From: Escherichia phage PECP20
Length of the DNA stretch: 64,000 bases
Sequence record: OQ873415.1
Strand: one strand, 5' to 3'
Below, piece after piece: positions 4,623 to 53,749 of this stretch. A program made the translations under genes and the position numbers. Each line of letters starts with the position of its first letter. The stretch's first letter is position 1. The notes beneath the pieces were generated by a model, which saw only the letters and a program-made list of their open reading frames with translations, made no database searches and was not told the DNA's origin.

Positions 4623-5369
4623 TTAACCTTTAATCAGTTGGAATAATGATGCGCTAAGTGGTAGGCCACGTTTCAATTTTAATTTACCAATGAAACCAAT
4701 CTTTTCAAAACGTTGCAGACCTTGGATAACTTTATCATATGTATCGAAAAGCGATTCAGCGTCAGTTAATTTAGTTTTAGTTTTCCAGTCAGAGCCTTTA
4801 AGAAGAACGTTGAGTTTAGTAAGTTCATGGCCTTCTGCTTGATGCGAGCCATTAATGCGTGCTTTCAAAGCAACAATTCTAAGTTTAGATTCGTTAGATA
4901 AAGGTTGATTTTTCATCATGTTCGTCATATGCTTAACACGATTTTCACGTTTTGCTCGGATTTTTAAAATAGTATCATAAACCTTTTTGATTTGGGCCCA
5001 TTTCTTCTCGTCGAGATTAAGTTTCTCTACTTTACGGGCAGAAGGATTAGCGATACGCCTTGCAATGGCATCACGTTTCTCGATAAGTTCTTCTAATGTT
5101 AAATCGGAACGAGCCGTGTTATATTTTTTCTTAACTGGGATAACATTACCTTTAATGTAGCCGATATCGTTATCAAAACGTTCTAAGGATAATTTCTCAC
5201 CTTCAACAGAGTTATTGAAAGATTCACCTGAGTAAGCGCAGACCTTTTGATCAAGAATGTTTTTAAGGTAATTAAAGTCTAAGTTAAAATCCTTAGAGCG
5301 TCTCTTCGCAGAAGCTCTGGTGTGGTCAAGACGACGATTGATTTTGTTAATTTTATTATTTGATAACAT
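4623..5369 (-). CDS. hypothetical basic protein in the srd position; N-terminal HNH-like motif
   Basis: 248 aa; between dda.1 and the mod genes as T4 srd is; contains CAYSG...ERFDNDIGYIKGNV resembling HNH endonuclease motifs. Confidence 0.5.
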   Translation of the reverse strand: MLSNNKINKINRRLDHTRASAKRRSKDFNLDFNYLKNILDQKVCAYSGESFNNSVEGEKLSLERFDNDIGYIKGNVIPVKKKYNTARSDLTLEELIEKRDAIARRIANPSARKVEKLNLDEKKWAQIKKVYDTILKIRAKRENRVKHMTNMMKNQPLSNESKLRIVALKARINGSHQAEGHELTKLNVLLKGSDWKTKTKLTDAESLFDTYDKVIQGLQRFEKIGFIGKLKLKRGLPLSASLFQLIKG

Positions 5370-5522: not shown

Positions 5523-6131
5523 TCAGTAACCGACAATAGACAGATTCCAGATTGTATAATTTCCATCTTGAATAATAGAATCTACACGCAGTGTAGTCCC
5601 TATAGGGAGCATAAATTCACATTCGTCAGATATAAGTCTAGCATTAGACCGTCTTGTCGCTTCAGGGAAAGCTCCATTGAACTCACAAGATGGCGCAGCC
5701 AGAATCATGTTAAGCATATGTTCACGGAAGTTGAAAGCAAATGGTGCATCTTTGATGCAGAACATATTAAATGTTCCGTAAAAATTATACGAAGCAAAGT
5801 TACGTGCTACACCGAACACTGGACTAAAGCTCATTACTCTGTCAAATTTAATAATACTACCAATGCCTTTATCATCGAGTGTGGCCATAGTTTTCTTAGA
5901 GATTCCACGATACATTGTCTCAGGAACAGAAGACGTCCAATTTCTACGAACAATTGCACTTAAATCTTGTTGGATGCTATCAGGCTTGTTTTCCATACAC
6001 TGCCATAGTACACTTTGTTCAATGTCGCTGAATTGACTATCAATTTCGTACTGCAATTCATCTTGATATTCAGGGCATTGAGCACGACGAACCATTTCTT
6101 CAATTTCACACTCGTTATACGGCATAAACAT
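5523..6131 (-). CDS. modA: ADP-ribosyltransferase, ModA/ModB family
   Basis: 202 aa; R-S-E type motifs (YRG, SFS, ECEF); synteny; modA versus modB assignment is by position only. Confidence 0.6.
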   Translation of the reverse strand: MFMPYNECEIEEMVRRAQCPEYQDELQYEIDSQFSDIEQSVLWQCMENKPDSIQQDLSAIVRRNWTSSVPETMYRGISKKTMATLDDKGIGSIIKFDRVMSFSPVFGVARNFASYNFYGTFNMFCIKDAPFAFNFREHMLNMILAAPSCEFNGAFPEATRRSNARLISDECEFMLPIGTTLRVDSIIQDGNYTIWNLSIVGY

Positions 6132-6188: not shown

Positions 6189-6770
6189 CTAAAAATTCAA
6201 CATTTTCAAATGAATGATTTTGTATAACCGAGATAAAGGGTCATATTCTAAGTCTTCAATTTCTACAATCTCAAATCTAGAGATACCTGAGACCATGTAT
6301 TCTTGTTCAGATTCAATCATATCTAGGACGTCAACACGTTTTTCTTCCATAACATGCTTAGGGTTCTTTCCGGCGAGTACAATGTTAACCATGTTTTGGT
6401 AGTAATCGAAAATGAACGGAGCATTCCTGAGACTAAGAATAGTGTACGTTTGATATTCCCAACTCCCAGAGAACTGTCTGGCCGTACCAAAGTCTGTTGT
6501 AAACGATGTTACTCGTCCAGGAGACCAATGGCATCCTACAGATAACAATGAAAGATGTTCTACTTCTTCTGGAGTTACACCACGGTAGAGTTCTACTGGT
6601 ACTGTAGAAGTCATATGCTTACGAACAAGACGGTCTAATTCATAGTGGAAATCTGGGTCTTCCTTATAATCAGTGCAAGCCCAGAGAATGTTTTGTTCTT
6701 GTTTAGTGAATTTATCATCAATTAGTGCTGCGAGATATTCGCGTTCTTGAAGTTCAGATTGACATGTCAT
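6189..6770 (-). CDS. modB: ADP-ribosyltransferase, ModA/ModB family
   Basis: 193 aa paralog of the previous ORF (YRG, TSFT, EQEY). Confidence 0.6.
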   Translation of the reverse strand: MTCQSELQEREYLAALIDDKFTKQEQNILWACTDYKEDPDFHYELDRLVRKHMTSTVPVELYRGVTPEEVEHLSLLSVGCHWSPGRVTSFTTDFGTARQFSGSWEYQTYTILSLRNAPFIFDYYQNMVNIVLAGKNPKHVMEEKRVDVLDMIESEQEYMVSGISRFEIVEIEDLEYDPLSRLYKIIHLKMLNF

Positions 6771-52533: not shown

Positions 52534-52757
52534 TTAGGTTCACCTTCTTTAACGAAATCTGGGTAAGGGTAAAATCCTGAGTAAAACCCTTCACCTTTAT
52601 GATTGCTACAACCTTTGTTCGAACAGTAACACCAATAATCAAAATCACAAGCCATTTCGTCATTGCATAAAGCAAAAACTACAGGCCATTCGCATTTTTC
52701 GCATTTAGCACCTGTAAGAATTTTTGTTTGACTCATAACCATTTGACCTGCATGCAA
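52530..52757 (-). CDS. Cys-rich small protein (75 aa)
   Basis: Multiple Cys (CEKCEWP...CYCSNKGC), possible zinc binding. Confidence 0.5.
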   Translation of the reverse strand: MHAGQMVMSQTKILTGAKCEKCEWPVVFALCNDEMACDFDYWCYCSNKGCSNHKGEGFYSGFYPYPDFVKEGEPK

Positions 52758-52960
52758 TATTCTTCGACATGCTTTTTACGACATTTCTTATCAATAAAGG
52801 TATATTCCATAAAGCGTCCATGATAACGACGTTCAACATCGTGAGGGGTGTTAATAGGACACTTAGTCTGGCGAATTTCTTCCCATTCACGAATAATAAC
52901 TGCTTTATTCTTTGGGTCATACGGGTGAGGATAATGCACATTCATAACAATGGTTCCCAA
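52733..52960 (-). CDS. hypothetical protein (75 aa)
   Basis: Preferred over overlapping 52705..52941 frame on composition and coupling with neighbours. Confidence 0.45.
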   Translation of the reverse strand: MGTIVMNVHYPHPYDPKNKAVIIREWEEIRQTKCPINTPHDVERRYHGRFMEYTFIDKKCRKKHVEEYCMQVKWL

Positions 52961-53409
52961 TCAACAATCACAATTTCTAGTTTAGTGGAATACGTATCTA
53001 AAATCTCTTCGATGACATCCCAGTTTCCACCACCAATACCTGCACCAATTCTTGGCATATAAATTACAGGCTTTGTTATCTTATTTTTTCCGAATTCATT
53101 TAATTCTATTATACAATTCATTAAAGCAGAGTACTCAAAATTAGGTCCCGGCTCAAACTGTGTATAAAGATTAAAGCAATAAGCTTTATGGGTCTTAAAA
53201 TATTTTTCATAAACCGAATAAGTCCCGAGTTTAGACTCGTCTCCGAATTCGGTTTGAAGTTTATCGGCTTCTAAAATTTTTGGATAAGCCTTTGCCAATT
53301 GACCTGCTACACCGGCACCCATTGTATGAAAACAATTGCACCCATGAGCAATATTATTACCTTTAGAAAACAGGGCGACAATATCGCCCTTGATATAGTT
53401 TTTAATCAC
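52942..53409 (-). CDS. macro-domain-like protein (ADP-ribose binding/processing fold)
   Basis: 155 aa; N-terminal GDIVALFSKGNNIAHGCNCFHTMGAGVAGQL and C-terminal PRIGAGIGGG resemble macro-domain Gly-rich loops. Confidence 0.6.
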   Translation of the reverse strand: MIKNYIKGDIVALFSKGNNIAHGCNCFHTMGAGVAGQLAKAYPKILEADKLQTEFGDESKLGTYSVYEKYFKTHKAYCFNLYTQFEPGPNFEYSALMNCIIELNEFGKNKITKPVIYMPRIGAGIGGGNWDVIEEILDTYSTKLEIVIVDWEPLL

Positions 53410-53749
53410 TTGCTACAAGTCCTCTAGTATAAGAGTCAACTAGACGGTCCACCATAGAATTGCATGCTGCCTTATCTTTAGGTTCCGCCACCGAGCATTC
53501 TAATATTTGCCATTTTTTATAGTATCTTTTAATTAAGGTAGACGCCTTGAACCTACTAGACGCCCCATCTTTTTCTCCGTCTTTATACGCATATAACAAT
53601 TTTTGTGAAAAATCTACTTTACACTCTTGACTTTTACCACAATAATCAGACGCCGTTCTGTTTGTATACTCCGTTACATCAGTATATGTAGTATTAGCAA
53701 GAGCGTTAAATGAAACCAAGCCAACTATTAAAGCTAACATTTTGGTCAT
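53402..53749 (-). CDS. secreted protein (115 aa)
   Basis: Signal peptide MTKMLALIVGLVSFNALA. Confidence 0.6.
   Translation of the reverse strand: MTKMLALIVGLVSFNALANTTYTDVTEYTNRTASDYCGKSQECKVDFSQKLLYAYKDGEKDGASSRFKASTLIKRYYKKWQILECSVAEPKDKAACNSMVDRLVDSYTRGLVASD

Follow-up and report, generated by a model that had tools for sequence, protein, structure and literature searches.

Phage T4 carries a gene, tk.4, that genetic evidence ties to resistance against the host defense system DarTG2. HIDEN-SEQ transposon mapping of T4 returned tk.4 as the single significant hit under DarTG2, insertions in tk.4 were depleted specifically when DarTG2 was present, and a clean deletion of tk.4 rendered T4 sensitive to DarTG2 (preprint, 10.1101/2025.11.20.689424). 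The authors of that preprint renamed Tk.4 AdfM (anti-DarT factor Macrodomain) and reported its structural similarity to DarG of M. tuberculosis; of enzymatic removal of ADP-ribose from DNA, they write only that it "seems likely" (10.1101/2025.11.20.689424). [quoted passage not shown]

The name AdfM has also been coined, in a Cell Reports paper, for gp104 of phage PhiKZ, which in vitro clears DNA of the ADP-ribose that DarT2 has attached (PMC13309987). Human TARG1 (OARD1) also strips ADP-ribose from thymine and uracil. SCO6735 of Streptomyces coelicolor and BT1257 are ALC1/TARG1-like macrodomains of the Gln type, and both cleave ADP-ribose linked to thymidine. SCO6735 loses this activity with the substitution Q85A and nearly all of it with N27S; the mechanism proposed for this enzyme is water-mediated and backbone-assisted, with the Gln positioning the distal ribose and, in a model, contacting its ring oxygen (PMC9411070). 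Mutation of the conserved Asn lowers activity in DarG, PhiKZ AdfM, and SCO6735 (PMC9411070, PMC13309987). A different substrate has been described for Adpp of Vibrio phage Gary: the purified protein converts ADPR-1''-phosphate to ADPR, a product that lets NARP1 rebuild NAD+ and thereby overcome the RES-domain defense aRES (2026 preprint, 10.64898/2026.01.28.702374).

Here, we analyzed a stretch of 64,000 nucleotides from Escherichia phage PECP20 (OQ873415.1), which we refer to as the window. By sequence comparison and by analogy with T4, we consider it likely that one gene in the window, an ortholog of T4 tk.4, encodes a stand-alone ALC1/TARG1-like macrodomain that serves as an "orphan antitoxin" against host DarTG2. 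The kind of gene is not new, as T4 tk.4/adfM has been described before and its relatives are already annotated. What we add is a predicted Gln-type active site, the collision of two proteins under the name AdfM, and the recognition of Adpp as a second characterized relative.

Macrodomain identity and relation to T4 tk.4

The gene and its immediate surroundings consist of the following features:

52942..53409, minus strand: macrodomain gene, ortholog of T4 tk.4/adfM (155 aa, GTG start, TGA stop)
53402..53749, minus strand: vs (valyl-tRNA synthetase modifier), upstream neighbor (PHROG 1256, E = 6.5e-35)
52733..52945, minus strand: tk.3 ortholog, downstream neighbor (PHROG 2008, match from ORF residue 6)
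53420..53424, minus strand: GAGGA, Shine-Dalgarno-like, read directly from the sequence, within the end of vs

An earlier note on this DNA had called the product macro-domain-like, and sequence, profile, and fold all agree with that call (Pfam, PDB matches, AlphaFold2, Foldseek). Both of the Gly-rich motifs that it quoted are present, AHGCNCFHTMGAGVAGQLAKA at residues 21-41 and MPRIGAGIGGGNW at residues 118-130. The Pfam Macro profile PF01661 matches the protein with 28.3 bits, above its gathering cutoff of 22 bits (E = 1.9e-6), over profile positions 2-117 of 118 (116/118). When the protein was compared by phmmer to PDB sequences, the matches with meaningful scores were macrodomains only: BT1257 (6.5e-11), Poa1p (1e-8), SCO6735 (7e-5), and DarG and TARG1 (each ~1e-3). 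A profile of 57 homologs yielded lower E values against the same five PDB proteins, namely 1e-17 for BT1257, 2e-16 for TARG1, 5e-15 for SCO6735, 2e-13 for DarG, and 5e-13 for Poa1p. Taken together, these matches go well beyond what chance would give.

Fold prediction, which the earlier note had proposed as a check, also recovered the macro fold. Given an alignment of 57 homologs as input, AlphaFold2 produced a model with a pLDDT of 95.1 and a pTM of 0.90, and the model together with its Foldseek matches displays the three-layer alpha/beta/alpha arrangement of macrodomains. The top ranks of the Foldseek search against the PDB were taken by TARG1, Poa1p, DarG, BT1257, and SCO6735, with E values of 4e-10 to 7e-7 and TM-scores of at most 0.80; the macrodomain matches had a Foldseek probability of 1.00. 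Among the best 50 of 139 PDB matches (E <= 0.001), all were macrodomains except five engineered serine-hydrolase designs, and viral and MacroD-type macrodomains ranked lower than the five proteins named above. Judged by its sequence and its predicted fold, the ORF at 52942-53409 is a genuine macrodomain. Because the profile and Foldseek rankings put TARG1, BT1257, SCO6735, DarG, and Poa1p first, we assign it to the ALC1/TARG1-like class.

The window comes from a T4-like Tequatrovirus. Around the gene, the sequence shows 99.7% identity to Escherichia phage CAU_ECP01 and 95-99% to ~150 other Tequatrovirus genomes, and the macro protein equals CAU_ECP01 XLQ29054.1 ("phosphatase") except for the reading of the GTG start. 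The complete genome of CAU_ECP01 has a single macro gene. More widely, the phage macro family is very common, with homologs detected by tblastn in 2,799 of 50,697 phage records; annotations among relatives include "phosphatase," "macro domain protein," "ADP-ribose binding module," and "hypothetical protein."

Compared to T4 Tk.4, the macro protein is 84% identical over 155/155 residues (tblastn and alignment), and the residues of the catalytic site are the same. In the T4 record, Tk.4 is annotated between vs and Tk.3. The neighbors in the window, assigned by PHROG family, are vs, Tk.3, Tk.2, Tk.1, and thymidine kinase in the T4 order, such that the string vs-tk.4-tk.3-tk.2-tk.1-tk is common to both phages, as is a 4-nt stop/start overlap with tk.3. 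We conclude from sequence and gene order that the window gene is the ortholog of T4 tk.4 (adfM). The two copies differ at their starts, where T4 has an ATG and a 4-nt ATGA overlap with vs whereas the window gene has a GTG and an 8-nt overlap. They also differ by 25 substitutions (16% of residues), including G127 of the window protein in the second Gly-rich loop, which is K in T4.

The 8-nt overlap between the vs stop and the start of the macro gene lies at 53402-53409 (GTGATTAA), and at the other end the TGA stop of the macro gene overlaps the ATG of tk.3 (52945-52943) as ATGA. The gene is thus part of a tightly packed string, and because it overlaps both the vs stop and the tk.3 ATG, the string is probably translationally coupled. 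The end of the GAGGA sequence is 10 nt upstream of the GTG start, and this sequence is also kept in T4.

At 53372-53390 on the minus strand, within codons 7-15 of the macro gene, there is a hairpin that resembles a terminator (AGGGCGATATTGTCGCCCT, then GTTTTCT). It has eight pairs, five of them G-C, and the stem-loop is identical in T4. Local identity to T4 is ~90% and the scanned region held seven terminator-like sites where 4.1 were expected, so the hairpin may be due to chance or may reflect the conserved KGDIVAL peptide. In the same scan for promoters and terminators, which covered 51.5-57.5 kb, we detected 17 promoter-like sites compared to 20 expected; a tRNA scan of the window found none. 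We also considered a paralog array among the similar-sized ORFs at 42.8-49.4 kb and ruled it out, as these ORFs gave no mutual BLASTP matches.

Active site and comparison with characterized macrodomains

Three elements of the protein bear on its activity:

53302..53346, minus strand: predicted first ADP-ribose-binding loop, codons 22-36 (HGCNCFHTMGAGVAG), with H22, N25, and G31-x-G33
53158..53160, minus strand: codon for Gln84 at the catalytic-Lys position, aligned with TARG1 K84, DarG K80, and SCO6735 Gln85
53020..53055, minus strand: predicted second Gly-rich phosphate-binding loop, codons 119-130 (PRIGAGIGGGNW), aligned to TARG1 PRIGCGLDRLQW

The two Gly-rich loops that characterize macrodomains, MGAGVAG (30-36) and IGAGIGGG (121-128), are predicted to line the site for the ADP-ribose diphosphate. 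We counted conservation over 121 family members within a 124-sequence alignment. In the first loop, G33 is present in 121/121 sequences, C26 in 120/121, N25 in 119/121, and H22 in 118/121. Gln84 is invariant (121/121). In the second loop, P119, I121, G122, and G124 are each found in 119/121, and the other two sequences are gapped there. D49, N80, and Y82 are likewise invariant among the 121 phage homologs.

In the hmmsearch alignment, the family motif N-L-Y-T-Q lies opposite Y-L-I-T-K of TARG1, which pairs Gln84 with TARG1 Lys84, and IGAGIGGG lies opposite IGCGLDRL, which pairs Gly126 with TARG1 Asp125. TARG1 has the best Foldseek E value (4e-10) and a profile E value of 2e-16, but its Lys84/Asp125 dyad is therefore Gln84/Gly126 in the window protein. 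When the family was compared by hhalign to a small alignment of the DarG family (98.6% probability), Thr83-Gln84 fell opposite Thr-Lys in the FPTK motif of DarG, and Asn25 opposite DarG Asn22; N25 also aligns with N23 of PhiKZ AdfM and N27 of SCO6735. In the 124-sequence alignment, BT1257 and SCO6735 have their Gln in the same column as Gln84. The SCO6735 sequence was reconstructed from a PDB alignment, and its numbering reproduces the Val25, Asn27, and Gln85 of the published work (PMC9411070). A MAFFT alignment with DarG, TARG1, and PhiKZ placed the catalytic strand one column off, with Thr83 opposite the Lys; we rejected this register because the profile-sequence, profile-profile, and 124-sequence alignments all equate Gln84 with the Lys.

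With Q84 and N25 aligned to Q85 and N27 of SCO6735, we infer that the macro protein is a Gln-type enzyme like SCO6735 rather than a Lys-type enzyme like DarG. An active site built on Asn25 and Gln84 with no Lys is unlike that of the DarG antitoxin it supposedly mimics and matches that of SCO6735. The likeness to SCO6735 and BT1257 extends to the H-x-C-N motif, the RIGxGxxGGxW loop, and the fold. However, the window protein is only 22-28% identical to these two proteins, and its C26, D49, and Y82 are not shared with them. The extended, lysine-bearing mobile loop that follows the Gln is also absent from the window protein, in which the loop is six residues shorter (a 6-residue gap compared to BT1257), QFEPGPNF contains no Lys, and there is no equivalent of SCO6735 Lys89/Lys94. 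This loop has been proposed to help SCO6735 bind DNA (PMC9411070), and its absence is a point against a role as a DNA glycohydrolase. At the three unshared positions, BT1257 and SCO6735 have Asp (Cys26), Tyr (Asp49), and Ile (Tyr82); Adpp retains all three phage residues, and Poa1p appears to retain Cys26 and Asp49.

A relationship to DarG is supported by the PADLOC DarG profile, which matches the window protein (E = 9e-9), and by the hhalign comparison. The match to the DarG model NF048014 of NCBIfam scores 31.9 bits against a cutoff of 250 and covers only model positions 4-146 of 338, the window protein being 155 aa long. The catalytic lysine of DarG (Lys80, FPTK motif) is replaced by Gln84, the C-terminal DarT-binding domain of DarG is absent, and the adjacent genes are vs and tk.3 rather than a darT toxin gene. 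To judge from these features, the protein is no DarG, although it would work like an orphan antitoxin. It shares the fold, the class, the conserved Asn, and presumably the substrate (the DarT2 product) with DarG of T. aquaticus and M. tuberculosis and with PhiKZ gp104. In contrast, identity to these proteins is ~20%, and both DarG and PhiKZ gp104 keep the FPTK catalytic Lys where the window protein has Gln.

We translated the PhiKZ gp104 sequence from the paper that describes it (PMC13309987). With M. tuberculosis DarG, PhiKZ AdfM gives a match of E = 9e-25, and its FPTK lysine is retained, whereas its BLAST match to the window protein spans 23 residues only, and we therefore rejected a transfer of annotation from PhiKZ AdfM by similarity. 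This difference in similarity indicates that the AdfM proteins of T4 and PhiKZ belong, by sequence, to separate lineages of macrodomains and came to act against one defense by convergence. The use of one name for two unrelated macrodomain lineages will confuse annotation transfer.

The earlier note had also suggested that the protein could counter host DNA ADP-ribosylation by systems such as DarTG and had proposed infection of DarTG hosts with a deletion mutant. This infection has in effect been performed for T4, with a positive result (10.1101/2025.11.20.689424). The suggestion is thereby supported experimentally, by both screen and deletion, for the T4 ortholog; the window copy, being 84% identical, would by analogy act as T4 Tk.4 does. 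A real counter-defense gene was thus recognizable from the raw sequence, as the note holds up both in calling a macrodomain and in pointing to DarTG.

The mechanism that we propose starts from DarT2, which attaches ADP-ribose to thymidines of single-stranded phage DNA and thereby blocks replication. The phage macro protein would most likely use its two Gly-rich loops to bind the ADP-ribose and then, again most likely, hydrolyze the bond between ribose and thymine, making the DNA clean again. The protein has no catalytic lysine; Asn25 and Gln84 would probably place the distal ribose so that a water-mediated reaction could follow, of the kind proposed for SCO6735, and the chemistry of the window protein would be of the Gln type.

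Protection could also come mainly from binding and blocking DarT2, with no catalysis involved. Such a block is conceivable because the catalytically dead variants SCO6735 Q85A, DarG K80A, and TARG1 K84A are all still inhibitors of DarT in vitro, acting through interaction (PMC9411070). However, the window protein lacks the domain with which DarG binds DarT, and the conservation of N25 (119/121) and Q84 (121/121) in a family that extends down to ~40% identity argues for catalysis. We regard a purely noncatalytic block as very unlikely and favor enzymatic removal of ADP-ribose from DNA as the means by which the protein would protect the phage.

Adpp and the phosphatase label

The protein matches PHROG 335 (E = 4.7e-67), and both PHROG and GenBank label this family "phosphatase." One homolog is found in Vibrio phage Athena (NC_055851.1), where it lies, within the segment 105552-108558, between a Prs-like gene (Adps) and a Nampt-like gene (Namat), an arrangement that is the NARP1-AP operon. 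The Athena protein is 38% identical to the window protein (E = 1e-24) and 98.1% identical to Adpp of Vibrio phage Gary. The signature of H22, C-N-C, D49, N80, Y82, Q84, and the Gly loops is common to the Athena and window proteins. By sequence, Adpp is accordingly the closest biochemically characterized relative of the window protein, and because this relative converts ADPR-1''-phosphate, there may be some substance to the old label "phosphatase." That the closest characterized relative is an ADPR-1''-phosphate phosphatase with the same H/N/D/Q signature is a further counterpoint to a role for the window protein as a DNA glycohydrolase.

These relationships raise the question of whether the main activity of the window protein is that of an ADPR-1''-phosphate phosphatase, as in Poa1p and Adpp, which would clear ADPR-1P arising from aRES NADase defenses or from RNA repair. 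The identity of 38% to the Athena copy of a proven Adpp, the common signature residues, and the family label all point in this direction. Yeast Poa1p is also among the best matches in both sequence and fold, and it gave the best query-normalized TM-score (0.80), although it has Ser at the Gln position. Adpp differs as well, with a loop after the Gln that is seven residues longer and a Gly in place of Thr83.

Gene content and genetics weigh against this activity as the main function. Adpp is useful only when it feeds Adps and Namat, and a tblastn search for these NARP1 genes (Adps-like, Namat-like) in the window and the whole CAU_ECP01 genome found neither, the best E value being 1.4. The window gene lies outside any Adps-macro-Namat operon, and the sole known phenotype of its T4 ortholog is the one under DarTG2 (10.1101/2025.11.20.689424). 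We consider a main role as an ADPR-1''-phosphate phosphatase unlikely. Because the NARP1 partners Adps and Namat are absent, we place the Adpp reaction among the possible side activities of the window protein and prefer the removal of DarT2-made ADP-ribose as its main function. Of the earlier note's idea that NAD-derived molecules might be the target, this leaves the part that concerns the 38% identical relative Adpp and its ADPR-1''-phosphate substrate; for the window gene, the required NARP1 enzymes are missing from both the window and CAU_ECP01.

The PHROG 335 family now has two different experimentally assigned counter-defense roles, those of T4 AdfM and of Adpp. We tentatively suggest, as a possibility that we would not yet bet on, that the Tk.4/Adpp family is a single Gln-type C1''-hydrolase scaffold that acts on ADPR-1''-phosphate as well as on DNA with thymidine-linked ADP-ribose. 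If this were true, one 155-aa protein would blunt two unrelated defenses, DarTG2 and RES-type NADases, and the reports on T4 AdfM and Vibrio phage Adpp (2025-26) would describe the same chemistry, one that dispenses with the lysine that DarG and TARG1 use for catalysis.

Phage ADP-ribosyltransferases and ADP-ribose-derived signals

The earlier note had stated that this phage encodes ADP-ribosyltransferases. We confirmed this, as two ORFs of the ModA/ModB family in the window match PHROG 832, "RNA polymerase ADP-ribosylase":

5523..6131, minus strand: ModA/ModB-family ADP-ribosyltransferase, 202 aa (PHROG 832, E = 3.7e-38; CAU_ECP01 "ribosyltransferase")
6189..6770, minus strand: second ModA/ModB-family ADP-ribosyltransferase, 193 aa (PHROG 832, E = 1.1e-36; CAU_ECP01 "ModB ADP-ribosylase")

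The genome of CAU_ECP01, the closest complete relative, also encodes Alt. Given these enzymes, the macro protein might erase or tune the ADP-ribosylation (or RNAylation) that the phage itself carries out with Alt, ModA, and ModB. The note's proposal that it reverses phage-made ADP-ribosylation drew on the co-occurrence of the ModA/ModB-type genes, and we found no support for it beyond that co-occurrence. A distance of 47 kb separates the macro gene from the mod genes, with which it shares no organization. Alt and ModA/ModB modify arginine, and cleavage of this linkage is not known for TARG1-class macrodomains. In addition, the depletion of T4 tk.4 insertions is specific to DarTG2 (10.1101/2025.11.20.689424). 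A role in erasing the phage's own marks is, in our view, highly improbable.

We give similarly little credence to a role in destroying or sequestering ADP-ribose-derived immune signals, for example, the gcADPR or His-ADPR of Thoeris. The macro fold binds ADP-ribose, and the targeting of soluble immune signals has been proposed for phage macro domains generally (PMC9503650), but the characterized members of this family act on ADP-ribosylated DNA (by genetics) or on ADPR-1P. In the paper on CmdTAC (Nature 2024), we searched for a connection with the macrodomain; the only mentions were in its reference list. The action on DarT2-modified DNA thus stands as the reading that we prefer for the window gene. 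At the other end of the window, a Srd-like gene at 4623-5369 adjoins the two ModA/ModB-family genes.
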